Shown: positions 5,022 to 61,469 of the stretch, piece after piece
How the letters are laid out: each line of letters starts with the position of its first letter
How positions within the stretch are numbered: position 1 is the first letter of the stretch
Assembly (NCBI GenBank): GCA_030606335.1
Contig: JAUWGP010000003.1
Coordinates: 26,065-90,064 of the forward strand
Reading direction: 5' to 3'
From: a candidate division WOR-3 bacterium
GTDB lineage: Bacteria; Hydrothermota; UBA3073
DNA length: 64,000 bases
The notes under the pieces: model-generated
Seen by the model: the letters and a program-made list of their open reading frames with translations, nothing else
What the model was told of the DNA's origin: nothing
The model's database searches: none
Made by a program: the position numbers and the translations under genes

Positions 5022-5412
5022 CAAAACTTAACCACAGAGAACACAGAGAAATTAAATCAAAATTACTAATTAGCAATGTGTAATTATAAATTTGTGAAAA
5101 ATCCTTTTTAAACTGCTAACTTTATATTTTACATTGTTTCTTTGTCTCTGTGACCTCTTATCCATCTCAAGATCTGTTCCGTGGGATCCGTATGGAATGA
5201 ATAGGTATAAGGTCACCTTCCTAATTATCTTACCTGCTAGCTGGCAGGTGGTAGACAGACAATTCCTGTGAAATCATATCCGTTAGCTAATGAACATTAT
5301 CTGGATTCACTCTGTTAAATAGTTATAAAATTGAGTAAAAGAAATCACTCCTGGTACTTTATTTAACAGGAGAACCACGGAGAATTAATTTTTCTCTGTG
5401 CTCTCTGTGGTT
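5022..5412. repeat. MITE-like element with CCACAGAGAACACAGAGAA terminal inverted repeats, copy 1
   Basis: ccacagagaacacagagaa at 5022-5040 and its inverse ttctctgtgctctctgtggtt at 5392-5412. The interior shares ctgtgaaatcatatccgttagctaatgaacattatctgga with copy 2. Confidence 0.55.
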
Positions 5413-7410: not shown

Positions 7411-7560
7411 CTTCTCTCTTCCCCCTTCGCCTTATTTATCCCGTAGAATGCGTAGCTATTCTATCGGGACGCCCTACGCCCTATACTCCTCTCTTATCGC
7501 AACGAGGACGTTGCTCCTACCATAGATCGTCCGTCAAACGACGGACTCCTACTTTTAATT
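7411..7560. repeat. dispersed hairpin repeat ('cccgtagaatgcg...ctattctatcggg' module plus 'ctcctctcttatcg-hairpin-ctcctacc' module), copy 1
   Basis: About 75 nt are near-identical to 25140-25215, and 7478-7522 parallels 24999-25048 with a different but still self-complementary stem. Confidence 0.5.
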
Positions 7561-7599
7561 TACTATTTTCGATTGTCGATTTACGACTGCTTTCCAATT

Positions 7600-7990
7600 T
7601 GTTTTCCTCAATAGTCAGTTGTCATTAGTCATTCAATATCCCCAACATTAAACATTAAACATTTCACATACAACATGTATCATTTAACCAATTAACTTTT
7701 CAACTAATTAATTCGTGTGTTTATTGAGTTTATTGAGTTTGTTGTGTTCATTGAGTTTTTTTAGTTGATTTGGTTTATTTAGTTCGTTTAGTTGATTTAG
7801 TTGTTATATATAATAACCAATAACCATTAACTAATAACATTTAACATTAAACATTTAACATTTACTACTCCACTGATAACCGATAACCTAATTAACTAAT
7901 CAACCAATTAACCAATCAACTATTCCTTCTATCGCGACTGGGAAGTCGCTCCTACCTTATGCCATCTGATACATTTAACATTCAACATTT
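7600..7990. repeat. AT-rich low-complexity degenerate tandem repeats
   Basis: Runs of taaacatt/acatttaacatt, tattgagttt and ttagttgattt units. The ttgagtt motif recurs at 24700-24760. Confidence 0.5.
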
Positions 7991-8009
7991 CACATTCAAC
8001 ATTTTCCCT

Positions 8010-10784: not shown

Positions 10785-13133
10785 ATGGAAAAATTTAATA
10801 TGCATCTCAGCGAAGCAGATACAAGAGCAAAATTAATTGACCCCGCTCTCCATCTTTCTGGATGGACAGAAGACCTTGTAAGACGTGAAGAAACTGAGAG
10901 AGGTATTGATATTATAGATGGAAAACCACGCAGAAGAAGAAGGGGACGAATAGATTATATTCTACGCATTAAAGTTAATATTAACTCACAACCCATCGCA
11001 GTTGCTTTAATAGAAGCTAAGAAAAGCGATAACCCACCTGATAAAGGACTCGAACAAGCAAAGAAGTACGCAAGACTAAATAACGTACCTTTTGTATATT
11101 CTTCCAATGGTCATCTCTTTGTGGAATATGACAACTTTACAGGTAAAACTTCTCACCCGAATTCTTTAGAAAAGTTTCCTACACCATTTGAACTACGACA
11201 ACGCCATGAAAAAGGGATTGGTATTTCACTTGATAAAGAAAATGCAAAGCCACTTCTTATCCCGTATCCAGGAGGTGAAGCAAGCCGTCGTTATTATCAG
11301 GATGCAGCAATTCGTGCTACACTCGAGAAAATTATACAGGGAAAAAAACGGATGCTCCTATTCCTTGCTACAGGCTCCGGGAAAACCTTCATTGCGGTTC
11401 GTCTTTTGAAGAAGATTGCAGATGCTGGGCATTTACATCGTGCTTTATTTCTTTGTGACAGGGATGAACTCCGAAATCAGGGACTTTCAGCATATCAAAA
11501 TATTTTTGGTGCTGATGCTGCTCCTGTATCTACTGCAAATCCACAGAAAAACGCAAGAATTTTAATAGCAACATATCAAACTCTTAATGTAGCAGGCGAG
11601 AACGAAGATGCTAAATTCTTACTCGATAACTATCCTGAAAACTATTTCAGTCATATAATAATCGATGAATGCCATAGGAGTGCCTGGGGTAAATGGAGTA
11701 TCGTGCTAAAAAGAAATTCCGATGCAATTCAAATAGGACTTACAGCCACTCCACGTTACTGGGAGGGTGGTAGTAAGGAGGAAAAAAAAGTAGACAAAGA
11801 GATAACTGCTAACAACCTTCAATATTTTGGCGAACCAATTTACGAATACTCAATGTCACAAGGAATTGAAGATGGTTATCTCCCTGCTTGTGAGGTGATA
11901 AGACGCGATGTGAATCTCGATATAATAGGTGTCACACGAAATGATATTAAAGTATTGGGAGCAAGAGATGCTACAACAGGTAAGCAACTTACACCCGACG
12001 AAACCCGTGAGATATACGAAGCTACATCCTTTGAGGATATTATTCAATTGCCTGACAGAGTAGAAACAATGTGTAAAGACCTTTTTAAAATGTTCCTTCA
12101 AACGGGTGGACCTCACCAGAAGACAGTTATTTTTTGTGTGCGTGATACCCATGCAGATGCCATTGCCGCTGAAATAAATAATCTTTATGCTGAGTGGTGT
12201 GATAGAAATAAGCAAAAAAGATATGAGCCTTATGCATTCAAATGCACTGCTTCTGTGGGAGGAAGCAAATATATATCAGATTTGCGTAGCTTAGAGCGAA
12301 GTCATTTTATCGCTACTACAGTTGATTTAATAACTACAGGAGTTGATATACCAATATTACGTAATGTAGTATTCTTTAGATATATCCGTTCTCCAATATA
12401 CTTTCAACAAATGATGGGAAGGGGGTCAAGAATTCATCTTCCTACAAATAAATTGATGTTTCGGGTTTATGATTATACGGATGCTACAAGACTGTTAGGA
12501 GAAGAGTTTAAGTCAAAACCCTCACCCACACGAGAAAAAAAGGAAACAGAAGAGGGAGAAAAAGAAAGAATAATCCGAGTAGAAGGATTTGATGTTCGAA
12601 TTAATCCTGCCGGAACTTATATTGTCACTGAAAAAGAAGGAAGATTATCAATGGTTACAGTAGAGGAGTACAAGCAGACTATTGCAGAGCACTTGGTTGA
12701 AAATGTTAAAACATTAGACGATCTTCGTCATAGATGGATAAATCCTGAGGAACGTGGAGAGCTTATAGATTCCCTTCCCGAAGACGGACGAGGAATAAGA
12801 ATGCTGCAGGAACTTCTTAATCGAAAAGAATATGACCTTTATGATTTAATGGCAGAAATCGGGTTTGGTGTATCCCCTAAAAGTCGTGAGGAAAGAGTTG
12901 AAGCCCTTCAATATAAACATGCTGACTGGTTTAAACATTTACCCTCAGAAACAGCAAAAACATTGTTTGCACTTGCAAGGCAATTTGAAAGAGGCGGTAC
13001 TGAAGAATTAGAAAACCCGTATGTTTTCAATGCTCCTGATGTTGTTAAAGCGGGTGGACATCAAGCTTTAAAGGTGCTTGGTGGACCAAAAGACATTATT
13101 ATTGAGATGAAAAGGAGGTTATTTGCAGCCTGA
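10785..13133 (+). CDS. hsdR: Type I restriction enzyme R subunit (EcoEI-like size class)
   Basis: N-terminal HsdR signature MHLSEADTRAKLIDPALHLSGW; helicase motif I LATGSGKT and motif II IIIDECHRS; 782 aa. Confidence 0.9.
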   Translation: MEKFNMHLSEADTRAKLIDPALHLSGWTEDLVRREETERGIDIIDGKPRRRRRGRIDYILRIKVNINSQPIAVALIEAKKSDNPPDKGLEQAKKYARLNNVPFVYSSNGHLFVEYDNFTGKTSHPNSLEKFPTPFELRQRHEKGIGISLDKENAKPLLIPYPGGEASRRYYQDAAIRATLEKIIQGKKRMLLFLATGSGKTFIAVRLLKKIADAGHLHRALFLCDRDELRNQGLSAYQNIFGADAAPVSTANPQKNARILIATYQTLNVAGENEDAKFLLDNYPENYFSHIIIDECHRSAWGKWSIVLKRNSDAIQIGLTATPRYWEGGSKEEKKVDKEITANNLQYFGEPIYEYSMSQGIEDGYLPACEVIRRDVNLDIIGVTRNDIKVLGARDATTGKQLTPDETREIYEATSFEDIIQLPDRVETMCKDLFKMFLQTGGPHQKTVIFCVRDTHADAIAAEINNLYAEWCDRNKQKRYEPYAFKCTASVGGSKYISDLRSLERSHFIATTVDLITTGVDIPILRNVVFFRYIRSPIYFQQMMGRGSRIHLPTNKLMFRVYDYTDATRLLGEEFKSKPSPTREKKETEEGEKERIIRVEGFDVRINPAGTYIVTEKEGRLSMVTVEEYKQTIAEHLVENVKTLDDLRHRWINPEERGELIDSLPEDGRGIRMLQELLNRKEYDLYDLMAEIGFGVSPKSREERVEALQYKHADWFKHLPSETAKTLFALARQFERGGTEELENPYVFNAPDVVKAGGHQALKVLGGPKDIIIEMKRRLFAA

Positions 13134-14034
13134 AAAGGAGATATTTGATTTTCTTGTTGAAAATGCAATATACCCTATGATTAGTAAGAAGGGTAAGGTC
13201 TTCTTTAAATATCCGAAGAAAGGAATGTTAACTGAGGCTAAAGCAAGAGAAATTATTGAACAATTGGATATTAAGACCAGAAATGACTGCAAAAAATTAA
13301 GGGAAAAAATCAGAAACCTGAGATCTGCATTCAGAGAAAATCGTCCTATAAGCAAATGGATTAAAGAGGAAAGACCAAGGGAGATGCTGGTTAAATACGG
13401 TCCCGAGTTCCTCCCTTTATCAAAACTTCTTGCAATAATATTAAGGATAGGAAGGGAAGGAATAAGTGCAGAAGAACTATCAAAAAGGTTATTGAATAAG
13501 TTTGGTGCATTAAGGAAAATAGATACTGCAACAATTTCTGAGATACGTGAGATAGAAGGAATAGGTCTTGCAAAAGCAGCACAAATAAAAGCTGCACTTG
13601 AACTTGGTAAAAGGCTATATAAAGAAACTGCTGTAAGGAAGAGAAAGATAACAAAACCAGATGAACTTATTGAGTATGTAGCAGAATATTACGGTCCTTA
13701 TCTAAGGGACTCTGTTAAAGAGTTTTTTTATGTCATACTTCTGGATATAAAAAATAAACCTATTGATAACGTGGAAATAAGTAAGGGTAGTATAAATGCA
13801 AGTGTGGTAGATCCAAAGGATATTGTAAAAGAAGCAACTATACGGTCAGCCTCGTCAATAATTTTGGTTCATAATCATCCATCAGGTGAGACAGACCCAT
13901 CTGAAGAGGATAAAAGGTTAACAAAATCAATTATAGATGCCTGTGAACTCATTGATATAAAGGTATTAGACCATATAATCATTGGAAAAAATCAAGAAGA
14001 CTATTTTAGTTTCGTAAAGAACGGATTGATATAA
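13123..14034 (+). CDS. radC: RadC-like JAB/MPN-domain protein with an N-terminal extension
   Basis: ERPREMLVKYGPEFLPLSKLLAIILRIGREG, HhH motif IEGIGLAKAAQI, JAMM motif LVHNHPSGETDPSEEDKRLT. TTG start with AAGGAGG 5 nt upstream; overlaps the hsdR stop by 11 nt. Confidence 0.8.
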   Translation: MQPEKEIFDFLVENAIYPMISKKGKVFFKYPKKGMLTEAKAREIIEQLDIKTRNDCKKLREKIRNLRSAFRENRPISKWIKEERPREMLVKYGPEFLPLSKLLAIILRIGREGISAEELSKRLLNKFGALRKIDTATISEIREIEGIGLAKAAQIKAALELGKRLYKETAVRKRKITKPDELIEYVAEYYGPYLRDSVKEFFYVILLDIKNKPIDNVEISKGSINASVVDPKDIVKEATIRSASSIILVHNHPSGETDPSEEDKRLTKSIIDACELIDIKVLDHIIIGKNQEDYFSFVKNGLI

Positions 14035-14050
14035 TAGAGATTATTTTATT

Positions 14051-15526
14051 ATGAAAAAATATAAAATATTCGTAAGTGGCGTTCAGAGAGAGCTCAAAGA
14101 GGAGCGGTTTGCAGTAAAAGAAATCATCACTCTGAACACTTTTTTAAAGAAATACTTTGATGTCTTTCTTTTTGAGGACCTGCCAGCCAAAAGCAAGCCA
14201 GCAGAAAAGGTCTACCTTGGAAAAGTCTCGGAGAGTGATATCCTGCTATTGTTATTGGGAAAGGAGTATGGACAACCCAGTCCTGATGGTCTTTCAGCTA
14301 CAGAAAGGGAATTTAGAAAGGCTGTGGAACGGAATTTGAAAATCCTGGTTTTTTTGAGAGGAGAAGATGACTCTACCAGAGACAGGCGGGTTAGAAATCT
14401 TATACGGGAGATAAAAAGACCGGGCAGTGGATATACTTATGATGAATTTAATGGTACGTCCGATTTAAAAGAATGTGTTTTCAATAGTCTTGTAGAACTC
14501 CTGGAGGATGATGGTATTCTTGCCAGGCTCCCCTTCGATTCTACAATTTGTGAAGAAGCAACTTATGAAGACATAAATGAAGAACTGGTAGAGAACTTCC
14601 TGAAGTATAGAGCAATAAAACTAAAAGTGGAAGTTCCTGAAATACCCATAAGAGATTTCTTAGTAAAGACTATTAAAGCGGTCCGGGAATTAGACGGAAT
14701 CTTTAAGCTAACTAATGCAGCGATTCTTTTCTTTTGTGATTATCCTCAAGAATTCATTTCTCAAAGCAGTATAAAGATAGCAAGATACAGGGGGAATTCA
14801 AGGATAGAATTTATTGACTCACAGGAACTTACTGGTCCATTCTATAAAATAATTGATGATTTAGAGATATTCTTTAAAAGAAATACCCGATTAGCCAGCA
14901 AGATTGTGGAGTTTAAGAGAGTGGATATTCCCGAGTATCCCTTTGAGGCAATAAGAGAAGGAATAGTCAATGCAATGGCTCACAGAGATTATCTCCGCAT
15001 TGGTTCTAATATTCAGATGGATATCTTTAACGATAGAATAGAGGTCACCAGCCCCGGAGGACTTCTTCCAGGGTTGGACATTAAAAATCTGGAAGGGGTT
15101 CATGAGACGAGAAACAAAAGGATTTGCAAAATCTTTCACGAAACGAAAGATATGGAAAGATATGGGACTGGTATTACTAAAATGAAGAATTGGATGACAG
15201 AACACGGTTTGAAGCCGCCAGTAATAACTCAACCAGGTGATTTCTTCAGAATTAATTTTTATGGTCCGGGTGATAAGATATTAGATTTAGTTCCCAATAT
15301 ACCCGAAGAAAGACAAACAGATTTGAAAAAATTGGGCTTAAATAACAGACAAATAGAAGCATTAAGATTGATGGTAAATGAAGGGAAAGCCTTAACAAAC
15401 AGAAAATACAGAGAATTGTTTAACGTTAGCAATCAAACATTCGTTAGAGATATGCGACTACTGTCCAAGTTGGAATTTGTCACTTCCGAAGGTAAAGGTC
15501 GGTCTTTGCAATACAAAGCAAAATAA
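14051..15526 (+). CDS. DUF4062 / AlbA_2 (divergent AAA) / HATPase_c_4 protein with C-terminal HTH (Schlafen-like 'RecG-related' regulator family)
   Basis: N-terminus KIFVSGVQRELKEERFAVKEII...ILLLLLGKEYG matches the DUF4062 pattern. The middle has AIREGIVNAMAHRDYLRIGSNIQMDIFNDRIEVTSPGGLLPG (HATPase_c_4). The C-terminus has an HTH (NNRQIEALRLMVNEGKALTNRKYRELFNVSNQTFVRDMRLL). Confidence 0.6.
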   Translation: MKKYKIFVSGVQRELKEERFAVKEIITLNTFLKKYFDVFLFEDLPAKSKPAEKVYLGKVSESDILLLLLGKEYGQPSPDGLSATEREFRKAVERNLKILVFLRGEDDSTRDRRVRNLIREIKRPGSGYTYDEFNGTSDLKECVFNSLVELLEDDGILARLPFDSTICEEATYEDINEELVENFLKYRAIKLKVEVPEIPIRDFLVKTIKAVRELDGIFKLTNAAILFFCDYPQEFISQSSIKIARYRGNSRIEFIDSQELTGPFYKIIDDLEIFFKRNTRLASKIVEFKRVDIPEYPFEAIREGIVNAMAHRDYLRIGSNIQMDIFNDRIEVTSPGGLLPGLDIKNLEGVHETRNKRICKIFHETKDMERYGTGITKMKNWMTEHGLKPPVITQPGDFFRINFYGPGDKILDLVPNIPEERQTDLKKLGLNNRQIEALRLMVNEGKALTNRKYRELFNVSNQTFVRDMRLLSKLEFVTSEGKGRSLQYKAK

Positions 15527-15527
15527 C

Positions 15528-15700
15528 AATGTCACGAAACAAGTCCAAATGTCACGAGAATGTCATGAAAAAGCATGTCACGAAAAGTGAGAGAATGTCA
15601 CGGAATGCGTCACGAAAAAAGTATCCACAAAGGTGGAAAATTAATTTAAGAAATGTCCCTAAAAATTAAAAATGTCCTTAATAATGTCCGAAATCAGTAA
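15528..15700. repeat. array of about 9 degenerate AATGTCAC / AATGTCC motifs
   Basis: caATGTCACgaaa, aaATGTCACgag, aATGTCAtgaaa, gcATGTCACgaaa, gaATGTCACgga, gCGTCACgaaa, then aATGTCCct, aATGTCCtta, aATGTCCgaaa, irregularly spaced 12-21 nt apart. Confidence 0.5.
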
Positions 15701-15767
15701 TCCTAAGATAGAACTTCCAGCAGGCTGGCGATGGGTGAGACTGGGCAAGAAGATAGAAATTTATTGA
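15684..15767 (+). pseudogene. hsdS: hsdS N-terminal remnant (27 codons)
   Basis: Encodes MSEISNPKIELPAGWRWVRLGKKIEIY*, matching the N-terminus of the full hsdS (ILPPDWRWVKLGEVCEF); ctggcgatgggtga is shared at the nucleotide level. Confidence 0.5.
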
Positions 15768-15774
15768 TTTATAT

Positions 15775-16458
15775 GTGGAGGTGTCGTTAATGCTTAATCT
15801 ACAGAGAGGAATTCCAATCGAAGATGGAGATTTGTTTATCTTAGATACAAATCCATTCAGATTTTTGTATCTGGCAGCGGAAAGCCTAATCAAAGATGCA
15901 GAGCAAGCTGCAACCAAAAATAAGCATCGGGTTGAAATTAATCATTCTATTGGAGCACTTGTGGTGCTTCTTCTATCTACCGAAGCACTCATAAACAGAG
16001 TGTATGAGTGTTTCCTTAGAAGTAAATTCCCCAGACAGATATACGAAGAGATTATGGGTAAATGGTCTCTCACAATGAAATGGTATTTTGCTCCTCTGAT
16101 TTATAAATCTGGTGGTAACAATAAAACCTTTGATGTTAAAAAAGAACCCTGGCAATCTTTTTCTGAACTGAAAAAGATCAGGGATTATTTTGCTCACCCA
16201 AAGCCAGCCCAATTTCCCTTTACAGTATTAGATGCTAAAAAAAAGATCTTGGATGTTAATGAGGGCGTTATACCAAGATGGCCCCAAACAACAATTCCTA
16301 AAGACTTGAACCATTTTCGTTGGAAGGATGCTCAAACGGTTTTGGAAATTATTAATAAAATGATTGATAAATTAGACTCCTTCATGGGGGGAACAATCAA
16401 AAAGGACGATTGGTATTTAATAGAACAAATGAGTAAATATGAAAAAGCAGCTGAATAA
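15775..16458 (+). CDS. hypothetical protein embedded in the Type I RM locus
   Basis: About 222-227 aa. GGAGG at 15777-15781 precedes the ATG at 15790; the track ORF starts at GTG 15775. No recognisable motif. The 3' end overlaps the hsdS start by 20 nt. Confidence 0.5.
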   Translation: MEVSLMLNLQRGIPIEDGDLFILDTNPFRFLYLAAESLIKDAEQAATKNKHRVEINHSIGALVVLLLSTEALINRVYECFLRSKFPRQIYEEIMGKWSLTMKWYFAPLIYKSGGNNKTFDVKKEPWQSFSELKKIRDYFAHPKPAQFPFTVLDAKKKILDVNEGVIPRWPQTTIPKDLNHFRWKDAQTVLEIINKMIDKLDSFMGGTIKKDDWYLIEQMSKYEKAAE

Positions 16459-17581
16459 AGAAATACTTCCACCCGACTGGCGATGGGTGAAGTTGGGGGA
16501 AGTATGTGAGTTTGCGTATGGTTCAGGATTACCGGTACGAGATAGATTGAAGGGTCTCATTCCTGTATTTGGCTCAAACGGTGTTATTGGTTACCATAAC
16601 ATGGCAATTACTCAAAGTCCTACAATTATAATTGGTCGCAAGGGTTCAATTGGTCAAGTGAATTCTTCAGAATCTCCATGTTGGCCAATTGATACAACTT
16701 ACTACATTGACGAATCCAAAACCTCCTGTTATCTACATTGGCTGTACTGGTTACTTAAGTACCTGAGACTAGACGAACTTAATAAAGCGACTGGGGTGCC
16801 AGGTTTGAATCGTAATGACGCCTATAGTCAAGTTATCCCCCTCCCTCCTCTTTCTGAGCAGAAGCGCATCGCTGCAAAAATTAAGGAGTTAATGCAGGAG
16901 GTAGAACATGCCCGAACAGCCTGCGAAAAGCAATTAGAGGCAGCAAAAGCCCTTCCCTCCGCATATCTGCGAGAGGTCTTTAAAAGCGAAGATGCAAAGA
17001 AGTGGGAGAGTAAGAGGTTGGGAGAGGTTTGTGAGACTACAAGCGGAGGCACTCCATATAGAGGGAATAAAGAGTATTTTGACGGGGATATTCCCTGGGT
17101 GAAATCGGGAGAATTGGAAGACAATTACATCTATGACACGGAAGAGAAAATAACAGAATTAGGTCTTAAAAATTCTAGTGCTAAAATTTTGCCTATGGGA
17201 ACATTGTTAATTGCAATGTATGGAGCAACTGTTGGAAAGTTGGGGGTCTTGAATATTTCCGCTACTACTAATCAAGCTATTTGTGCCATTATTCCAAATT
17301 CCAAAGCCTCGACCAATTTTCTCTTTTTCTTTTTCATGCATTTTAGAAGAGACCTGGTCAATAAATCTTATGGAGGTGCTCAGCCAAATATCAGTCAAGA
17401 ACTAATAAAAGAAACACACATTCCTTTTCCGTCTATAAAAACCCAGCATCGTATTGCCGCTGAACTCAAAGAAAAAAAAGCAGAGGTAGATAAACTTCAC
17501 TCATCCATTGAAAGACAATTTGAAGCAATAAACGCCTTGCCACAGGCAATTTTAAGGAAGGCATTCATAGGGAAGTTGTGA
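16439..17581 (+). CDS. hsdS: Type I restriction-modification specificity subunit (two target-recognition domains)
   Basis: Two half-repeats, each starting with a conserved motif (LPPDWRWVKLGEVCEF / ESKRLGEVCETTSGGTP), each followed by a conserved coiled-coil spacer (LPPLSEQKRIAAKI..., FPSIKTQHRIAAEL...). Confidence 0.9.
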   Translation: MKKQLNKEILPPDWRWVKLGEVCEFAYGSGLPVRDRLKGLIPVFGSNGVIGYHNMAITQSPTIIIGRKGSIGQVNSSESPCWPIDTTYYIDESKTSCYLHWLYWLLKYLRLDELNKATGVPGLNRNDAYSQVIPLPPLSEQKRIAAKIKELMQEVEHARTACEKQLEAAKALPSAYLREVFKSEDAKKWESKRLGEVCETTSGGTPYRGNKEYFDGDIPWVKSGELEDNYIYDTEEKITELGLKNSSAKILPMGTLLIAMYGATVGKLGVLNISATTNQAICAIIPNSKASTNFLFFFFMHFRRDLVNKSYGGAQPNISQELIKETHIPFPSIKTQHRIAAELKEKKAEVDKLHSSIERQFEAINALPQAILRKAFIGKL

Positions 17582-17634
17582 TGGAAATTAAACCTACTAC
17601 ATTTATCTCTGTGATATCAACAAAAATATAAGAA

Positions 17635-18702
17635 ATGAATCTAAATAAACGGTCAAATAGCTTTTCCCAAGAAAATATTACTCGCATTACAGAATTCTTT
17701 AAAAATCAGCAACTTCCTGAACCTCATTTACATCTTTTTAAGAGTGTGGTTTGGAAGGGATATCGTTGGAGAGCAATTTGGAACACTCTCCATTATCGTC
17801 CACTTCATGAAACATTTCATGAATTTATCATATATATTTTGAAAGCAACTTTTGGTGAAAAATGGCGCAAAGAGCAGATGAATTTGTCTGAAGAAGAAAG
17901 ACATATTCTTATTCGCTGGGTTAAATCTTATGGTGAATGGAAAAAAGCTACTCATAATGATGAAAAGAAAGAAGGCGAGTATATCTATGGTGCTATCCCA
18001 AGTGGTGAAGTTATGGCACTCCATTCATTTGCTTATGATATATATTGCCTCCAAGTAGTCAATAAGTTACCAAACTTCTTAGTAAATAGACTGAAGAATA
18101 AAAATGAATTCCAAGGTGCAAGATATGAAATAGCTGTGGCTGCTATTATCGCTCGAGCGGGCTTTGCTATAACCTTCCTCGATGACAAGGTTAAAAGTCA
18201 AAAGCATTGTGAATTCGTCGCCAAGAATAAATATTCTGGGTTACAAATTGGAGTTGAAGCTAAAAGTCGAAGAAGGAAAGGTGTACTCCATGAAAAAGGA
18301 AATTTGAATTACTCTTCAGTTGTAAGAGGAGACATTGAGAACCTTTTTGAAAAGGCTCTTACTCAGAGGCCCAAGAACATGCCATATTTTATTTTCATCG
18401 ACTTGAATGTAATGCCTACCCCAGACCCAGAAATTCCCCCTGACAAAAAACCATGGTTTAAGGATATAAAATTGCTATTAGATAGATATGGGATACCTTC
18501 TAAAGAAAATCCAGATCCGTTTAATGCATTGGTGTTGACTAATTTTTCTTATTATTATTTGGGAAACTTACCTATTACTCATTTGGGAGAATACGGTCTA
18601 ATCATCTCTGAAATTCCAGAATACCCGTGCAAAGATATGCAGGCTATAAGTGAAATATGGGAAAGTTTAGGACGGTATTCTCATATTCCGAAAGATGTAT
18701 AA
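17635..18702 (+). CDS. hypothetical protein between hsdS and hsdM; possible PD-(D/E)xK-like nuclease core (inference)
   Basis: 355 aa with no P-loop. The segment ARYEIAVAAIIARAGFAITFLDDKVKSQKHCEFVAKNKYSGLQIGVEAKSRRRK fits a helix-E, strand-D, strand-ExK arrangement. Confidence 0.45.
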   Translation: MNLNKRSNSFSQENITRITEFFKNQQLPEPHLHLFKSVVWKGYRWRAIWNTLHYRPLHETFHEFIIYILKATFGEKWRKEQMNLSEEERHILIRWVKSYGEWKKATHNDEKKEGEYIYGAIPSGEVMALHSFAYDIYCLQVVNKLPNFLVNRLKNKNEFQGARYEIAVAAIIARAGFAITFLDDKVKSQKHCEFVAKNKYSGLQIGVEAKSRRRKGVLHEKGNLNYSSVVRGDIENLFEKALTQRPKNMPYFIFIDLNVMPTPDPEIPPDKKPWFKDIKLLLDRYGIPSKENPDPFNALVLTNFSYYYLGNLPITHLGEYGLIISEIPEYPCKDMQAISEIWESLGRYSHIPKDV

Positions 18703-18725
18703 CCTTATACCCTAAATTATCTTAT

Positions 18726-20231
18726 ATGCGAAAAAATTCTCACAAAATAACCACACCACAATCTCTGAATGCCTATATCAAGGGTATCTGTGATATTATG
18801 CGGAGGTCGGGAAGAGCTGGGGCTCTCCAGTATGTGCCTGAACTTACCTGGATGCTCTTCCTCCGTATTCTTGATGAAAAAGAGGAGATAGAAGTAGAAT
18901 ATACTAAAGCATTAGGTAGAGAATTTATTCCTTCACTCCAATATCCATATCGCTGGCGAGATTGGGCTGCTCCTGATGGAGAAAAAAGAAAGGAATTACA
19001 AGAGGGAACATTTGGAAGATTTATGAGCTTCGTCGATGGAGACCTGCTCCCTACCCTCAAAAAATTAAAGGATAAACCTGGTGCAACTCCTCGTCAGAAG
19101 GTTGTCAGTCAAGTCTTCTCCTCTTTTGAAAAAACGGGTATTGATACCGAACGCAATCTTTTAGATATACTTGATAAAATTCATGAACTCTCCTTGGAGC
19201 AAGTTGAAGAAACCCACATGTTCACACTCTCCCAGGTCTATGAGGGACTGATACAGAAAATGGGTGAGAAAAACAACGACGGTGGACAGTTTTTCACACC
19301 AAGAGAGGTTATTCGTGTTATGGTTAAAGTGATTGACCCGAAGATTGGAGAAACCGTTTATGACCCCTGCTGTGGAACGGGTGGGTTTCTGGCTCAGGCA
19401 TATCTACATATGAATAAAAATGCAACAATAGCAGATGACATTGAAACCCTCAAGATTAGAACCTTCTACGGTAGAGAGAAAGAAAATCTTGTTTACCCCA
19501 TTGTCCTTGCAAATCTCGTGCTTCATGAGATAGATGAACCACATATATGGCATGGCAACACGCTAACAGGTCATGAGGTTTATGGTGGACTTTTCCAAAG
19601 TGCACCCGTCCTCTTTGATGTAGTCCTCACTAATCCTCCCTTTGGTGGTAAAGAGGGAAAAGATGCTCGGACTCATTTTGCCTATAAAACCAGCTCTACA
19701 CAGGTATTGTTCTTGCAACATGTCATTGATAACCTTAAAAATAGTGGCAGGTGTGGAATCGTAATGGATGAAGGTGTTTTATTCCGCACAAATGAGAAAG
19801 CCTTTGTCCAGACTAAACGCAAACTCTTGAGTGAGTGCAACCTCTATTGTATTGTAAGTCTTCCTCCCAAGGTATTCCTTAATGCTGGTGCAGCAAGTAA
19901 AACCAATCTACTTTTTTTCACTAAAGGTGAACAAACTAAAGAAATATGGTATTATGACCTATCTGATTTAAATGTAACAAAAAGGCAGCCCTTAACTATG
20001 CATCACTTTGAGGAGTTCTTTAAATTATTACCAGAAAAAAAAGAAAGTGAGCATTCCTGGAAGGTTCCAATAGAAGAAATAGAAGAGAAAAATTACGACA
20101 TAAAAGCAGTAAATCCAAACAGAAAAATCGAGGAAGACACAAGAAGCCCGCAAGAGCTATTAGCAATTATTGAGTCCCAGCAAAAAGAAATCACAAACGC
20201 ATTATCAAAATTGAAAGATAAAGGCTTGTGA
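18726..20231 (+). CDS. hsdM: Type I restriction-modification N6-adenine DNA methyltransferase subunit
   Basis: HsdM N-domain (GALQYVPELTWMLFLRILDEKEE), GTGGFL SAM-binding motif, NPPFGG catalytic motif. The start is taken at the ATG at 18726, after the stop of the upstream gene. Confidence 0.9.
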   Translation: MRKNSHKITTPQSLNAYIKGICDIMRRSGRAGALQYVPELTWMLFLRILDEKEEIEVEYTKALGREFIPSLQYPYRWRDWAAPDGEKRKELQEGTFGRFMSFVDGDLLPTLKKLKDKPGATPRQKVVSQVFSSFEKTGIDTERNLLDILDKIHELSLEQVEETHMFTLSQVYEGLIQKMGEKNNDGGQFFTPREVIRVMVKVIDPKIGETVYDPCCGTGGFLAQAYLHMNKNATIADDIETLKIRTFYGREKENLVYPIVLANLVLHEIDEPHIWHGNTLTGHEVYGGLFQSAPVLFDVVLTNPPFGGKEGKDARTHFAYKTSSTQVLFLQHVIDNLKNSGRCGIVMDEGVLFRTNEKAFVQTKRKLLSECNLYCIVSLPPKVFLNAGAASKTNLLFFTKGEQTKEIWYYDLSDLNVTKRQPLTMHHFEEFFKLLPEKKESEHSWKVPIEEIEEKNYDIKAVNPNRKIEEDTRSPQELLAIIESQQKEITNALSKLKDKGL

Positions 20232-20239
20232 GATATAAT

Positions 20240-20451
20240 ATGATAAAATCTAACCCTTTCACTCCAAAGTCTGGTTTGGAGCAGAAAATCTTTTTCAATA
20301 GGGAAGATGAGATAAAATTGCCGATATTGAGATAAAAAGTTTGAATGTTTATCTTCGTAGGTTGGTAGAGAAAGAAATCTTAATTGGTGTTAGGCGTGGC
20401 GAATATAAATTAAAAGACATTCTATTGTGTGAATACCTGAGAAGAAAATAA
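20240..20451 (+). pseudogene. degraded remnant of an AAA-type (PF01637-like) ATPase gene
   Basis: Frame A encodes MIKSNPFTPKSGLEQKIFFNREDEIKLPILR*, the characteristic NPF.P...FxxREDEI N-terminus of 'archaeal-type' ATPases. A second frame at 20353-20451 encodes LRRLVEKEILIGVRRGEYKLKDILLCEYLRRK*, a wHTH-like C-terminus. The body of the gene is missing. Confidence 0.3.
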
Positions 20452-20812
20452 CAAAAATTACAAATCAAGCCTAATGTTGTAATTTCTGTAATTTTGGATA
20501 TAGAATTCTTAGGGATCGTAGGGTCAAGTCTCAACATAAGACATTTTTATTGGCGAGGGAAGTTCGGTGGCGGGGTACTCCAACGAGAGCTGTAATTTGA
20601 GTGCATTACCTTGGTAATGCAAGTGGGCGGTAGCAAGCTATTGCAATTCTTAATCTCTAAGATAGATTTTATTTAATAAAAAGGAAATATTAATAGGGAT
20701 TACAATTAGAAAGATAAACTTCTTTTGGTAAGACTAATGGGGGTCAGTTCTTGGCACACTCCAAAGAAGTTTTAATAGCACTGTAGAAATTAATCAGTAT
20801 TAGGATATAGAT

Positions 20813-21859
20813 ATGTTTAAACCAAAATTCACAATCACCAATAAAATAAACAATTTCCTTCTTGAAATTGAGAGGGCAAGAGGATTTTTGGAGGCGGCAA
20901 AGTTAAAGGAGGCATGGATAAAGGATATGCAAAGTGAAGCACTTATCCTTGAAGCGCACCACTCTACACATATTGAAGGAACTCAACTGACCTTATCCCA
21001 GGCTCAAAGAATTCTTACCGGCAAATCTGTAAAGGGCATTAGGAAAGATGATCGTCAAGAACTCCTGAACTATAAAGAGGCAACTGATTTTGTCTCCGAA
21101 TACCTGGGGAAGAAATTAGAAATCACGGAGGATTTAATTAAGCAGATACACAAGATTTTAGTTAAAGATGTCAGGGGTGGAACCCTTGAGCCAGGAAGAT
21201 ATAGAAAAGTTCAGAATTATGTAGTCAACTCCTTGACAAGAGCAATAATTTATATTCCGCCCCCTCCAGAGGAAGTTCCTAAACTAATGAAAGAATTCGT
21301 TGAATGGTTAAACGTAAAAAAGAAGATATCACCTGTGCTCATGGCAGGGATCAGTCAATATCAGTTTGTTGACATTCATCCCTTCTTAGATGGAAACGGA
21401 AGGACTGCTCGTGTTTTATGTACGCTCATTCTTTATCAGAATGAATATGATTTTAAAAGGCTTTTTTCATTGTCCGAATATTACGACAAAAAACGCCGGA
21501 GGTACTACGACGCCATTCAATCAGTGAGAGAGAATAATATAGATATGACAGAATGGCTCGAATATTTTACAGAAGGACTGAAAAATCAATTGATAGAAGT
21601 AAAAACAAAGGGAGAAAAGGCAATTAAAAAGGAAGTTCTCATTGAGAAGGCTAAAAGATTTAACTTAAACGAGCGTCAACAGAAAATTTTATTACATTTA
21701 TTGGAGCAAAAGCGGATTTCGGTTGAGGAAATCAGACAGAAATATAATTTGGTTAGAAGAACGATTCAACGTGATTTCTCAAAATTGGTTGAGTTAGGTC
21801 TAATAAAGGAAATAGCAAAAAGCAAGACAGACCCTACAAGGTATTATGAATTACTGTGA
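20813..21859 (+). CDS. fic: Fic/DOC family protein (AMPylator-type) with C-terminal winged-helix domain
   Basis: Canonical Fic motif HPFLDGNGRTARVL; 348 aa. Confidence 0.9.
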   Translation: MFKPKFTITNKINNFLLEIERARGFLEAAKLKEAWIKDMQSEALILEAHHSTHIEGTQLTLSQAQRILTGKSVKGIRKDDRQELLNYKEATDFVSEYLGKKLEITEDLIKQIHKILVKDVRGGTLEPGRYRKVQNYVVNSLTRAIIYIPPPPEEVPKLMKEFVEWLNVKKKISPVLMAGISQYQFVDIHPFLDGNGRTARVLCTLILYQNEYDFKRLFSLSEYYDKKRRRYYDAIQSVRENNIDMTEWLEYFTEGLKNQLIEVKTKGEKAIKKEVLIEKAKRFNLNERQQKILLHLLEQKRISVEEIRQKYNLVRRTIQRDFSKLVELGLIKEIAKSKTDPTRYYELL

Positions 21860-21903
21860 CATTTTACTGCGACAATACTGTGACATTTACTGTGACATAA
21901 TTA
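21857..21903. repeat. 4 tandem CTGTGACAT units (12-13 nt period)
   Basis: ctgtgacatttta ctgcgacaata ctgtgacattta ctgtgacataatt immediately after the fic stop. The core GTGACAT is the reverse complement of the ATGTCAC array at 15528-15700. Confidence 0.5.
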
Positions 21904-21973
21904 TTGAGGTCGGGAGACCTCTCCCACAAAGTTTGTATTGGGAGAAATGGGGGTCAGGCTAATGGAGAAATGG

Positions 21974-22142
21974 GGGTCAGGCTAAGAGATAAGAAATAGA
22001 AAATAATCTCACTACTTTGCCACGAAATATCAGATGATAAAAATCTCCTTCATATTCTATCCTCAGTTTCCTGGCATATTTTTATTTTACTATAACTTTC
22101 CCTCTATCTCAAGCAATTATCTCTTATCTTTTAGCCTGACCC
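21974..22142. repeat. about 170 bp MITE-like element, copy 1 (24-nt terminal inverted repeats gggtcaggctaagagataagaaat / atctcttatcttttagcctgaccc)
   Basis: The TIRs are perfect reverse complements over about 20 nt. The interior is near-identical to 24808-24978. A partial extra TIR copy sits at 21942-21964. Confidence 0.6.
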
Positions 22143-22161
22143 ACAATACCACTCTAAAATT

Positions 22162-24702: not shown

Positions 24703-24807
24703 GTTTCTTGAGTTTTCACAGTTTATTGAGTTTCTTGAGTTATTGGGTTTGTTGGGTCTTAGGGTAGTACTTAAGGGGGTCAAGAAATGGGGGTCATCAA
24801 GAAATGG

Positions 24808-24978
24808 GGGTCAGGCTAAAAGATAAGAGATAGAATATAGTCTCACTCCTATTGCCACGAGATATCAAATGATAAAAATCTCCTTCATATTCTATCCTCA
24901 GTTTCCTGGGCATATTTTCGTTTTACTTTAACTTTCCCTCTGTCTCAAGCAATTATCTCTTATCTTTTAGCCTGACCC
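24808..24978. repeat. about 170 bp MITE-like element, copy 2 (same orientation as copy 1)
   Basis: gggtcaggctaaaagataagagat ... atctcttatcttttagcctgaccc, with an interior matching copy 1. Confidence 0.6.
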
Positions 24979-24998
24979 GCAATATTCCCGCAATATTA

Positions 24999-25262
24999 CG
25001 CCCTACGCTCCTCTCTTATCGCCCCGCCAAAGGCGGGGCTCCTACCTTTTTTCTTTTCTCCTAAGTTATTCTAAATTGCTAATTGCTAATTTTGCATTGA
25101 TAATTGACTTCACCTTCTCTATTCCCTCTTTCCTCATCTCTCTTCCCCCTTCGTTTTATTTATCCCGTAGAATGCGCAGCTATTCTATCGGGACGCTCTA
25201 CGCCCTTCGCCTTACGCTCTACGCCTTACGCCCTACGCCCTTCCCTCATCACTCTTCCGTCT
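24999..25262. repeat. dispersed hairpin repeat, copy 2, plus cttacgcc/ctacgcc microsatellite
   Basis: acgccctacgctcctctcttatcgCCCCGCCaaaGGCGGGGctcctacc, tctcttcccccttcgttttatttatcccgtagaatgcgcagctattctatcgggacgc, and (c)ttacgcc x6. Confidence 0.5.
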
Positions 25263-61310: not shown

Positions 61311-61469
61311 TGCCTACCGGCAGGCAGGCGTTGACCTGATTTTTTATAATTTTGTGAACGTATAAGCTACATTCACAGATAGAAACCTGGAAACCTTTTC
61401 CCACAATCATTCAATATTTGCTATTCACTATTTACTACTAAATATTTACTATTTAATATCATTTTTTCC

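Follow-up and report, generated by a model that had tools for sequence, protein, structure and literature searches.

Organization of the Locus

What are the two arrays of short repeats that lie, inverted to each other, around the hsdS-to-fic segment of a type I restriction-modification (R-M) operon? Both are in the 64-kb stretch of DNA that was analyzed here (the window). The initial annotation proposed that they are either the ends of a mobile cassette or operator arrays bound by the HTH proteins of the immediately preceding genes. A Pfam search of the open reading frames (ORFs) gave the gene order as hsdR, a RadC-like gene, a gene for a 491-aa protein, a truncated hsdS 5' fragment (S'), an unknown ORF, hsdS, a second unknown ORF, hsdM, and fic, all on the + strand. 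The restriction subunit gene, hsdR (10785..13133; Pfam ResIII, SWI2_SNF2, EcoEI_R_C, and HSDR_N; PADLOC REase_I, 5e-95), is the first gene of the operon that contains both wHTH domains and their arrays. A RadC-like JAB protein gene (13123..14034; Pfam RadC, 6e-40; NCBIfam RadC) comes next. Many related loci (L002, L005, L006, and others) have it in this position, too, with hsdR on one side and the 491-aa gene on the other.

The 491-aa gene (14051..15526) encodes a defense-type protein with a DUF4062 domain (TIR-like NADase domain; Pfam 4e-18), a Schlafen-like region, a GHKL-type HATPase_c_4 domain (Pfam 2e-23), and a C-terminal wHTH. In PADLOC it matched pAgo-associated Schlafen-type models (~1e-17), and in the PDB it matched KpSwz DUF4062 (2.5e-7) and 3lmm (1.8e-9). 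It has 662 homologues across phyla, and an alignment of the family displays a conserved body and discrete tail classes. The wHTH coding part (15332..15523) belongs to class A, with recognition helix SNQTFVRDM and wing GKGRSLQY, and the tail HMM matched the ORF at 4e-29. S' (15684..15767) was read from the sequence as MSEISNPKIELPAGWRWVRLGKKIEIY and a stop. It shares a 33-nt repeat with hsdS (15713-15745 and 16465-16497, 82% identical). Two ORFs of unknown function, one of 227 aa (15775..16458) between S' and the intact hsdS and one of 355 aa (17635..18702), had no match in Pfam, PADLOC, NCBIfam, or PHROG. The specificity subunit is encoded by hsdS (16439..17581; Pfam Methylase_S, 1e-45) and the methyltransferase subunit by hsdM (18657..20231; Pfam N6_Mtase, 3e-66, and HsdM_N).

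The last gene, fic (20813..21859), encodes a SoFic-type class II Fic protein of the AMP-transferase family (Pfam Fic, 9e-24, Fic_N, and HTH_DeoR; PADLOC SoFic, 1.7e-71; SoFic chains in the PDB, 6e-14). Two motifs were invariant in the Fic comparison, HPFLDGNGRTAR (Fic motif) and STHIEG (inhibitory motif). Its wHTH coding part (21659..21856) has recognition helix VRRTIQRDF and wing KSKTDPTRYY. Thus, both flanking proteins end in wHTH domains, as first annotated and now found with Pfam and hhalign. The two tails are homologous (hhalign probability 99%, E 8e-18). They are the only such domains in the window, and each is followed by an array.

Repeat Arrays

The array after the 491-aa gene had been described as about nine direct copies of one core. 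The copies are real, and they are a composite of two word types, six ATGTCAYGAAA words and three ATGTCC words. Array 1a (15529..15617, + strand) consists of the six direct words, counted as matches to ATGTCAYGAAA with at most two mismatches. These start at 15529, 15549, 15560, 15575, 15595, and 15607 (spacing 20, 11, 15, 20, 12), and the first begins 5 nt past the first base of the 491-aa stop codon. No promoter-like site or hexamer was found in array 1. A small hairpin, TCCACAAAGGTGGA (15624..15637), separates array 1a from array 1b (15653..15694, + strand). Array 1b is a triplet of ATGTCC[C/T/G] words that start at 15653, 15672, and 15684 (spacing 19, 12), and the last word includes the ATG of S'.

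Array 2 had been placed at 21857-21903. Its existence stands, and its limits are corrected to 21851..21898. The four direct (TT)ACTGTGACA(T) words on the + strand lie at offsets -3, +10, +21, and +33 from the stop codon. The tandem count of four was right, with three copies of ACTGTGACA (21853, 21877, and 21889) and one of ACTGCGACA (21866). The fic stop codon (CTG|TGA, 21857-21859) is inside the first word, which supplies the TGA. The words have the orientation opposite to those of array 1. Directly after the array is a hairpin, GAGGTC-GGGA-GACCTC (21906..21921, + strand), that is conserved in the syntenic locus L002. No words of the cognate type were found upstream of fic in the window.

The ATGTCAC core that the two arrays were said to share does exist. 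There are 12 copies in the 64 kb and 6.5 were expected, with four on the + strand in array 1 and three on the - strand in array 2. Are these simply the AT-rich intergenic tandem repeats of this genome, with the core shared by chance? The intergenic regions of the window are rich in short tandem repeats, and period-12 CTGTGACA is also found as coding repeats in viral contigs. The initial annotation had called the arrays non-random, and Poisson probabilities computed against the window-wide word density agree, at ~2e-12 (array 1a), 3e-12, and 6e-9 for the three word clusters. Within the window, the words are clustered here and no other enrichment was seen. Distant phyla and GC-rich genomes also have these words after wHTH domains of the corresponding classes. 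This reading was rejected, as the comparative data already refute it, and it retains virtually no likelihood.

Distribution and Layout in Other Genomes

A search of related genomes for the same arrays had been suggested, and they were found, both for the array 1 type and in Fic relatives. Of 68 homologous loci, 67 contain a short word three or more times in the 110 nt that follow the stop codon, and 48 have at least 5 copies of some 8-mer (8-mers counted with at most one mismatch). At 675 other ORF ends in those loci, 0.6% attain 5 copies. Homologues of the 491-aa gene have their first word 2-12 nt past the stop codon, mostly at 3-7 nt, and a spacing of 20, 12, 14-16, 20, 12, a layout that is kept across all classes in Bacteria and Archaea. 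In the Fic family, the offsets are about -3, 7-10, 20-21, and 30-33, with a pair period of 23 nt. Words are 78-92% identical within a class and spacers 32-55%. The words are under selection, and the spacers are not conserved.

The array is tied to the end of the gene. Downstream genes vary across loci, and usually no fic follows the 491-aa homologues, while arrays of the array 2 type follow Fic-wHTH genes in unrelated contexts. Every sampled Fic of the wHTH class found here (51-80% identity, GC-rich genomes included) has a CTGTGACA array with the same placement. The word and layout of array 1a are present in all of the class-A loci L008, L016, L027, L057, and L070.

The word differs from one class of C-terminal wHTH to another. 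More than 15 classes were distinguished, and the layout stays constant. In the 491-aa family, class SNQTFVRDM has ATGTCAYGAAA, NKTAATDL has TTACACGATT, SRRTALRDL has ATGGCGCATAA, EKTARRDLK with an STKKA-type wing has ATGTCCGAAAT, DRTALRDLN has ATGTCGGATA, and the class with a GYKKGAYF wing has ATGTCCCTAAAA. The words of archaeal classes include TGGTGCATA. In the Fic family, the TDPT wing goes with CTGTGACA, the GATNRLIYR/GETHHLFYR wings with TTGCGACA, and the GEKKGTYY wing with AAGGGACAT. Covariation is also seen on a fine scale, since RRTA/IVRDL (L024 and L029) has ATGGCACATAA and RRTALRDL has ATGGCGCATAA.

The words of array 1b belong to different wHTH classes (GYKKGAYF and STKKA). No matching wHTH is encoded within the 64-kb window, and array 1b is therefore probably a remnant, or else it serves a protein encoded elsewhere. 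In L002, the triplet and the hsdS 5' fragment are present twice. L072 (class B) and L022 (ATTACCGGAAT words) have class-A words and then ATGTCC words downstream of the array that adjoins the stop codon, and L037 has stacked arrays of several classes.

A Probable Portable Module

Some homologues have nearly identical bodies and very different tails. Gene bodies that are 97%, 95%, and 90% identical carry tails that are only 24%, 31%, and 37% identical. The L042/L050 alignment contains a swapped cassette of ~340 nt, comprising the wHTH coding part and the array, between identical flanks. Genes that are otherwise nearly identical have traded the wHTH and its array as a pair. The two appear to be one portable module of ~300-350 bp. 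This module is at the 3' end of two unrelated defense-effector families, the DUF4062-NADase/Schlafen-like/GHKL proteins and the SoFic-type Fic AMP-transferases, and the tail-plus-sites unit recurs across bacteria and archaea. No earlier description of such a unit was found in the searchable literature.

These results bear on the proposal of a transposon or integrative cassette that spans hsdS to fic, is inserted after hsdR, and has the arrays as its ends, with subterminal transposase-binding sites direct within an end and inverted between ends. The inverted ATGTCAC-core arrays do flank a 6.2-kb segment, the region is mosaic relative to L002, and a MITE-like element lies just downstream. Yet Pfam detected no transposase or integrase in or beside the segment, the outer borders are without visible target-site duplication, and the arrays share only the 7-nt core, with different words and spacings. 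Dozens of unrelated loci have just one of the two types, placed after its own wHTH gene, and the inverted orientation is a family-level property of Fic versus 491-aa words. In syntenic L002, the interior (hsdS region and fic body) was replaced piecemeal with both arrays still in place. The segment also includes hsdS and hsdM, which hsdR needs. With no transposase, unlike words, and independent arrays in other genomes, the mobile cassette is largely refuted and is extremely unlikely. The arrays seem to bracket hsdS-fic because both families happen to sit in this operon.

Proposed Binding Sites and Their Possible Role

The other initial proposal, that the arrays are operators bound by the HTH proteins of the genes directly before them, has strong support at the sequence level from the covariation of word and class, the conservation of words over spacers, and the co-transfer of wHTH and array. 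Quite probably, the C-terminal wHTH of each protein recognizes the array at the end of its own gene as a set of cognate DNA sites. Array 1a comprises the proposed sites of the class-A wHTH and array 2 those of the Fic wHTH, and each protein is predicted to bind its own array.

Covariation of word and wHTH is partly expected, because the two move as one block. Fic-family words are always on the strand opposite to 491-family words. KKTAIRDL/GYKKGAYF has ATGTCCCT on the coding strand and KRTATRDL/GEKKGTYY has it on the other strand, and TGTCGG was seen in both orientations with DRTALRDL. A similar helix and wing thus go with the same core word in opposite orientation and in a different layout between the two families. 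The pattern favors recognition of duplex DNA over simple hitch-hiking of a block.

The same observation bears on a possible role of the repeats at the mRNA level, where they would form a 3' UTR element such as a protein-binding or stability motif. The arrays lie between stop codon and hairpin and are therefore probably transcribed. Action as RNA is still very unlikely, given similar wHTH classes with one core word on opposite strands, no significant RNA structure in the arrays (z -0.6 and -1.4), no Rfam match, and a domain of the DNA-binding wHTH type.

Arrays were not found with some wHTH-Fic proteins (38-41% identity, SEDTVLRDL helix) or with plasmid homologues. These cases, together with array 1b and its lack of a cognate wHTH in the window, count against the cognate-site reading.

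Could the wHTH proteins be ordinary R-M transcription factors, with the arrays as operators for downstream promoters such as those of hsdS and hsdM? Array 1 precedes hsdS, an hsdS start codon falls within array 1b, and R-M controller proteins are known (PMC6237814). This is improbable, as the position is fixed to the upstream stop codon and not to the downstream start (L006 included), downstream genes vary or are absent, and the Fic array ends the operon. Array 1 also lacks promoter-like hexamers, and one layout serves Bacteria and Archaea, whose promoters differ.

The leading guess, made by analogy and held tentatively, is promoter-independent negative feedback by a roadblock at the 3' end. 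A protein bound a few bases from its own stop codon would block RNA polymerase before the stop codon is transcribed. The truncated transcripts would have no stop codon, and their products would therefore be discarded. Feedback of this kind, independent of the promoter, would fit genes that move into foreign operons in different phyla.

The main alternative is that the effector is tethered or sequestered at its own locus, and both may hold together. The arrays would then be anchors or scaffolds on which an NADase or AMP-transferase is held or assembled beside its gene, with release or activation upon loss of the locus or when phage infection breaks down or remodels the host DNA. In this role, the DNA would be an antitoxin or a sensor platform. 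Both proteins come from families with toxic effector domains: DUF4062 is an NADase (10.64898/2026.05.01.722283), and SoFic AMPylates EF-Tu and is toxic if deregulated (bioRxiv 10.64898/2026.07.09.737422). DNA binding alters the activity of CbFic2 (PMC10628234). The fixed, head-to-tail, multi-site layout suggests an ordered oligomer, and the many orthogonal specificities resemble those of systems that avoid cross-talk. However, 3-6 sites per genome copy give little capacity to sequester a toxin, and anchoring alone needs no placement a few bases from a stop codon. Anchoring is considered unlikely, though less so than downstream operators.

Some considerations weigh against the roadblock. A 3' block would also lower expression of the downstream hsdS and hsdM, and the same layout is kept in Archaea, which are without tmRNA.

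Comparison with Known Systems

Subterminal arrays of the Tn7, Mu, and Tn3 families likewise have multiple short sites, direct within and inverted between arrays. Here, there is neither transposase nor target duplication, the words differ by side, and in other genomes each array is tied to its own upstream gene.

The specificities of plasmid iterons and centromere-like arrays diversify, and cross-talk is thereby prevented. In these systems (Rep-iteron and ParR-parC), several head-to-tail words of 10-20 bp lie beside the gene of a wHTH or RHH binder (review PMC4980987), a likeness to the arrays here. In contrast, the present locus is chromosomal, is syntenic in a relative, and has no replication or partition genes, and its arrays abut the stop codons of enzyme genes.

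Among wHTH class II Fic enzymes, to which the Fic of the window belongs as SoFic in PADLOC, CccR (PMC9755527) and SoFic (bioRxiv 10.64898/2026.07.09.737422) bind DNA specifically, and CbFic2 is stimulated by DNA binding (PMC10628234), so that binding can modulate activity. CccR differs in that it binds an inverted repeat, AGATAATCAT-N26-ATGATAATCT, in its own promoter (PMC9755527), and SoFic binds the 100 bp that precede its own start codon (bioRxiv 10.64898/2026.07.09.737422). That these known regulators bind upstream promoters and not 3' ends counts against the roadblock and binding readings. Unlike for the Fic here, no 3' direct-repeat array has been reported for CccR, SoFic, or CbFic2.

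C.Kpn2I, from an R-M system, is an elongation roadblock inside its own gene. As an HTH protein of an R-M locus, it binds its own transcription unit and lowers full-length mRNA (PMC6237814). It is a small dedicated regulator, and its site is in the coding region near the 5' part, by divergent promoters, and is neither an array nor at a stop codon, unlike the arrays here (PMC6237814).

A likeness in position is LacI at O3, where a roadblock truncates lacI transcripts and the proteins made from them receive the SsrA tag (Abo et al. 2000, as cited in PMC3711431). The DNA-binding protein has its site where its own gene ends, at the extreme 3' end, and the feedback is promoter-independent. With a site so placed, the bound protein can therefore stop RNA polymerase before the stop codon. 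LacI uses a single palindromic operator that also serves the neighboring lac promoter by looping. The arrays here instead have 3-6 direct repeats in a fixed layout and a DNA-binding domain that is C-terminal on an enzyme. There are many specificity classes, domain and sites are transferred together, and the roadblock is proposed here by analogy with LacI.

The hsdR-to-fic operon

All of the genes from hsdR through fic are co-oriented on the forward strand and form a single operon. These are hsdR (10785-13133), RadC (13123-14034), a gene for a 491-aa protein (14051-15526), a truncated 5' fragment of hsdS (15684-15767), an ORF of 227 aa located between this fragment and hsdS, hsdS (16439-17581), an ORF of 355 aa (17635-18702), hsdM (18657-20231), and fic (20813-21859). 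Since hsdR, hsdM, and hsdS are found within one locus, it qualifies as a type I restriction-modification (R-M) system. Searches of Pfam, PADLOC, NCBIfam, and PHROGs gave no match for either the 227-aa or the 355-aa ORF. The 227-aa ORF is flanked by two copies of a 33-nt repeat (15713-15745 and 16465-16497, 82% identical). This arrangement (15684-16497) has the look of a gene insertion into the 5' end of hsdS with duplication of the hsdS start.

The 491-aa protein contains an N-terminal DUF4062 domain, a Schlafen-like/GHKL (HATPase_c_4) middle, and a DNA-binding domain of the winged-helix type (wHTH) at the C-terminus. Residues 5-91 were identified as DUF4062 (Pfam 4e-18; PDB KpSwz DUF4062 2.5e-7), and by this domain the protein is a predicted member of the DUF4062 (TIR-like NADase) defence family. 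The combination of DUF4062, Schlafen-like, GHKL, and wHTH domains was not encountered in term searches of two DUF4062 papers. The Fic protein is of the SoFic type with a C-terminal wHTH (PADLOC SoFic 1.7e-71; PDB SoFic 6e-14). HTH_DeoR and related Pfam matches cover residues 282-344, and HPFLDGNGRTAR and STHIEG are invariant in the alignment of its relatives. Its score against the NCBIfam SoFic equivalog is 86.7, far under the cut-off of 550; thus, it is a relative of SoFic and not an orthologue. In exact look-ups, the only match to the 491-aa protein was an identical Logan contig, and the Fic protein had no record. The nearest public relative is a WOR-3 MAG (L002/L007), in which shared blocks are 93% identical and the chromosomal neighbours match those of the window (left, an S49 peptidase; right, a transglutaminase).

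Repeat arrays at the two stop codons

Two arrays of short repeated sequences, here called words, had been reported in the initial annotation. Direct reading of the window DNA found both near the reported positions, with small corrections of coordinates. Array 1a lies right after the TAA of the 491-aa gene and contains six forward-strand words that match ATGTCAYGAAA (15529, 15549, 15560, 15575, 15595, and 15607). It is followed by a small hairpin (15624-15637) and by array 1b, a forward-strand triplet of ATGTCC[C/T/G] (15653, 15672, and 15684; spacings 19 and 12) whose final word includes the ATG of the hsdS fragment. Array 2 contains four (TT)ACTGTGACA(T) words (21853, 21866, 21877, and 21889), the first of which provides the TGA stop of fic. 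The arrays do have the ATGTCAC core in common in opposite orientation, as had been described. This core is common to two related word families with the general form of ATGTC plus variable bases.

The arrays also proved to be non-random, with Poisson probabilities of approximately 2e-12, 3e-12, and 6e-9 for the three clusters. A search for the motifs in the rest of the genome had been proposed. It was run within the 64 kb, and counts outside the arrays equalled the shuffle expectation. Because the words are not enriched in the remainder of the 64 kb, their clustering is the sole unusual feature. Generic intergenic tandem repeats of the genome were rejected as an identity, as the words are not common elsewhere in the 64-kb window. 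Short tandem repeats with a period of 7-9 nt are themselves numerous between the genes of the window (7469-8004, 24698-24754, 25193-25267, 61409-61459, and others), with units such as ACGCCCT, GTTTATTTA, AACATTA, and ATTGAGTTT. These are unrelated to the wHTH arrays and are the background that gave the arrays a generic look. Pairs of CACAGAGAA are present at 5033 and 10270.

A promoter scan identified no promoter-like site in array 1, and neither an RNA family (Rfam) nor a structure signal (RNA folding) was detected in the arrays. Hairpins come after both arrays in the window, which probably places the arrays within the transcription unit.

Words and layout in homologues of the 491-aa protein

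Hundreds of close homologues of the 491-aa protein, the 491 family, are represented across many phyla. In their alignment, the body is conserved and the C-terminal wHTH splits into discrete classes. Eighty genomic loci were fetched and the DNA downstream of each stop codon was read. Among the loci read, each wHTH class has its own word. SNQTFVRDM (class A, that of the window) is found with ATGTCAYGAAA, NKTAATDL (class B) with TTACACGATT, SRRTALRDL (class D) with ATGGCGCATAA, EKTARRDLK and an STKKA-type wing with ATGTCCGAAAT, DKTARMDL with ATTACCGAAAT, the GYKKGAYF wing with ATGTCCCTAAAA, and DRTALRDLN with ATGTCGGATA. The words of additional bacterial and Methanobacterium classes include TGGCTCGAT, TCGAGCGAT, TGGTGCATA, ATGACACGTAA, TGAGGCATAA, TGCAGCATAA, TGAGACGAA, and TGGCGGATA.

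Whatever the word, the start-to-start spacings are 20, 12, 14-16, 20, and 12, and the first word begins 2-12 nt (mostly 3-7) past the first base of the stop codon. The layout is therefore two triplets; a single triplet is present in some loci. Array 1a matches this layout exactly. Array 1b is an additional triplet, with words that belong to another wHTH class. It probably stems from an older array layer; alternatively, it serves a protein encoded elsewhere.

The arrays were also counted in an unbiased manner, as copies of any 8-mer (at most one mismatch) within 110 nt downstream of the stop codon. At least three copies were found in 67 of 68 loci of the 491 family and at least five in 48 of 68. 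For comparison, these loci contain 675 other ORF ends, of which 0.6% reached five copies. The sole locus with fewer than three copies, L075, has a truncated wHTH wing. L032 is without a wHTH and has no cognate array on reading, yet it is counted among the 67. In L009 (8610-9992, 461 aa) and L018 (6798-8279, 494 aa), a paralogous second ORF follows the 491-aa homologue. These second ORFs end in the same wHTH type, each with words of its own (three GTAAYGAAAG and three to five AATGCGCA, respectively) that start at or before the stop codon.

Arrays in the Fic family

Relatives of the window Fic number in the thousands, from both Bacteria and Archaea, and 80 metagenome loci were fetched. Sampled proteins of its class (RRT[LV]QRDL, TDPT wing) are 51-80% identical to it, many of them from GC-rich genomes, and all are followed by three to five CTGTGACA words. 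The words are offset from the stop by -3, 7-10, 20-21, and 30-33 nt, and the first overlaps the stop codon except in two loci. In other Fic classes, the first word begins 1-7 nt past the stop. Here, the wing GATNRLIYR/GETHHLFYR is found with YTTGCGACA, and KRTATRDL with the wing GEKKGTYY is found with TAAGGGACAT.

Among the loci fetched, distant Fic proteins (approximately 30% identity, with another type of C-terminus) have no arrays. Arrays are also absent from four Fic at 38-41% identity that have an SEDTVLRDL helix. Thus, the array rule applies to a subfamily and not to all wHTH-Fic proteins. One Fic of 38% identity without a 3' array (L115) has three AATTTTCAAT words approximately 70-100 nt before its start codon, at approximately 250-290 nt into the 370-nt stretch upstream of the gene. 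These may be a conventional promoter operator.

Probable recognition of the arrays by the wHTH domains

It had been suggested that the arrays are operators for the HTH proteins encoded upstream. Conservation of words but not of spacers and covariation of helix and word support this as the likely reading. By hhalign, the wHTH of the 491-aa protein is homologous to that of Fic (99%, E 8e-18). No other domain of this kind is encoded in the window, and each of the two is followed by an array. Identity within a class is 78-92% for words and 32-55% for spacers. Across >15 classes in two protein families, the word changes together with the recognition helix and wing. In class D, two loci with RRTA/IVRDL have ATGGCACATAA and the RRTALRDL loci have ATGGCGCATAA, so that a single residue covaries with a single base.

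Where helices are similar between the two families, the core word is shared, but the strand is opposite and the layout differs. With KKTAIRDL/GYKKGAYF the word is ATGTCCCT on the coding strand, and with KRTATRDL/GEKKGTYY it takes the form AAGGGACAT. DRTALRDL is found with TGTCGG in a class of the 491 family and, at a relic wHTH of L002, with CCCGACA. A core word shared in this manner is hard to attribute to the hitch-hiking of a single DNA block and fits recognition of duplex DNA. Words of the Fic family are always on the opposite strand to those of the 491 family, which explains the inverted look of the window arrays. Taken together, covariation and conservation point to wHTH-DNA recognition at the arrays.

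Exchange of wHTH domains and arrays

Gene bodies that are 97%, 95%, and 90% identical have tails that are only 24%, 31%, and 37% identical, and their words are different. When L042 and L050 were aligned, a swapped stretch of approximately 340 nt was found inside identical flanks. It corresponds to the entire wHTH coding part and the array. By these alignments, the wHTH and its array evidently travel together as one unit.

Extra arrays are present downstream of the stop-adjacent one in several loci, for example L022, L072, and L037. Class-A words followed by ATGTCC words are found ahead of hsdS in L072 (class B) and L022 (ATTACCGGAAT words). L042 (approximately 11590-11680) and L050 (approximately 11560-11650) share extra arrays downstream of the swapped cassette, namely three CGGACAT, two TGCGCGATTAG, and three GGGGACA-like words with no matching gene adjacent. 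This stack may consist of arrays that are relics or are used in trans. In L002, an unrelated Fic replaces the fic body, and the final 59 nt of the wHTH gene are retained with array 2 as a relic. Upstream of hsdR, L002 also possesses a stand-alone 80-aa wHTH relic (6182-6424, helix DRTALRDL) followed by three CCCGACA words, and a second copy of the ATGTCC triplet (6511-6600) joined to an hsdS 5' fragment.

Rejected reading as transposon ends, and other repeats

The inverted cores had also suggested transposon or att ends that bracket a mobile cassette from hsdS to fic. This reading failed on recombinase, matching ends, target duplication, and presence of the unit. A Pfam search of all ORFs of at least 60 aa identified no transposase or recombinase from hsdR to fic; only R-M, RadC, DUF4062/HATPase_c_4, and Fic domains were matched, and two ORFs were unmatched. 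The terminal words differ (ATGTCAYGAAA vs. ACTGTGACAT), with the 7-nt core alone shared and with different spacing. No target-site duplication is visible at 15520-15528 or 21898-21906. L002 keeps both arrays, with its hsdS region and fic body changed piecemeal, which argues against a single mobile unit. In other loci, an array of one type is found alone.

CRISPR-like arrays were rejected (words of 11 nt, spacers of 1-9 nt), as were plasmid iterons (no rep/par genes, syntenic chromosome) and hsdS shufflons (no recombinase, repeats outside hsdS). A MITE-like element of approximately 175 nt with 28-nt terminal inverted repeats (TGGGGGTCAGGCTAAGAGATAAGAAATA and TATCTCTTATCTTTTAGCCTGACCCACA) is present in two direct copies (21971-22145 and 24805-24981, 85-97% identical) on either side of the 846-aa transglutaminase gene, and a half copy is found at 21941-21963. 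The first copy begins approximately 70 nt past array 2, where L002 has a Toluene_X gene.

Viral contigs and plasmids were also scanned. The class-A pattern had five matches in viral contigs; in four of them, the preceding ORF encodes an unrelated HTH and ATGTCA repeats come next. In the viral contigs L169, L171, L172, and L173, a different HTH (...TEIARRMEVGERQIYRIHERGL...) forms the end of an ORF, which has 195 aa when complete and is followed by approximately nine AATGTCA words spaced approximately 10-11 nt apart. By eye, this HTH looks like sigma-factor region 4, and it may be a further instance of an HTH gene followed by an array. A triple CTGTGACA pattern had 114 viral matches, of which 80 were fetched. 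Most of those looked at are period-12 tandem repeats, which we take to be NVTG-type coding repeats on the opposite strand, and a few follow integrase-like or primase-like ORFs. The plasmid collection contained only distant homologues (approximately 30-34% identity). The two inspected, from Legionella and Stanieria, have other C-termini and no arrays, and thus plasmids yielded no tractable model organism.

Possible function of the arrays

Array position goes with the upstream gene's stop codon and not with downstream content. The genes downstream vary, as does the distance to the next gene (L006). A role specific to one promoter type is disfavoured by the identical layout in Bacteria and Archaea. 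In both families, the candidate sites are at the 3' end of the protein's own gene, the placement of LacI O3. A protein on such an array, a few bases from its own stop, would stall RNA polymerase before it has transcribed the stop codon. Roadblock feedback of this kind, by analogy to LacI at O3, is a tentative proposal to which we give somewhat less than an even chance. It would require no promoter of its own and would suit genes that insert into foreign operons and cross phyla. Defence genes that move in this way cannot depend on a local promoter for control, and a DNA-binding tail whose sites lie at the stop codon would serve as a device for control or tethering that is portable and independent of the promoter.

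The main alternative is tethering, or control of effector activity by DNA. In its favour, DUF4062 domains are NADases in defence (10.64898/2026.05.01.722283), EF-Tu is AMPylated by SoFic (10.64898/2026.07.09.737422), and the activity of the related CbFic2 is altered by DNA binding (PMC10628234). Unlikely, and more speculative, is a self-contained control module for abortive-infection effectors, in which the adjacent DNA array would act as keeper of the effector. Through feedback at the stop codon, protein would be made in an amount just sufficient for the three to six sites, and the occupied array would keep the NADase or AMP-transferase inactive or pre-assembled. If the array DNA is lost or damaged, the effector would be freed or activated; possible causes are degradation of the chromosome induced by phage, a phage factor that causes displacement, and deletion of the defence island. 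DNA would then serve as antitoxin or sensor, and the many orthogonal specificities could have arisen because cross-talk is avoided or through an arms race.

The rule can be stated simply: the word follows the wHTH class, the layout is fixed, tail and sites are swapped as a cassette, and two unrelated effector families, in Bacteria and Archaea alike, are involved. It provides >15 putative natural protein-DNA specificity pairs on one small wHTH scaffold, a simple sequence signature to find such modules and their relics in genomes, and a testable hypothesis for how SoFic-type and DUF4062 effectors are restrained. It also proposes a possible role for the C-terminal wHTH of SoFic-like enzymes. To our knowledge, its own promoter is the only DNA site tested so far for SoFic.

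Comparison with known systems

Roadblock feedback at the stop codon would have precedents. PMC3711431, citing Abo et al. (2000), describes truncated lacI transcripts from LacI at O3, whose products are SsrA-tagged and degraded. The R-M controller C.Kpn2I forms a roadblock within its own gene (PMC6237814), and trans-translation resolves blocked transcription-translation complexes (PMC13584721). The known wHTH-Fic regulators, CccR (PMC9755527) and SoFic (10.64898/2026.07.09.737422), bind upstream sites. No cognate-type words are found in the region upstream of the window fic. The literature searched, which covered 3' arrays, HATPase_c_4, Schlafen/R-M, and DUF4062, with most subscription journals outside its scope, contained no description of stop-codon arrays for these genes. 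The components, a wHTH, operators, and roadblock feedback, are of known kinds. What appears to be new is their arrangement, in which an exchangeable wHTH is paired with a 3' array that matches it and has a fixed layout, and which seems to span two unrelated defence-effector families, >15 predicted specificities, and both Bacteria and Archaea.
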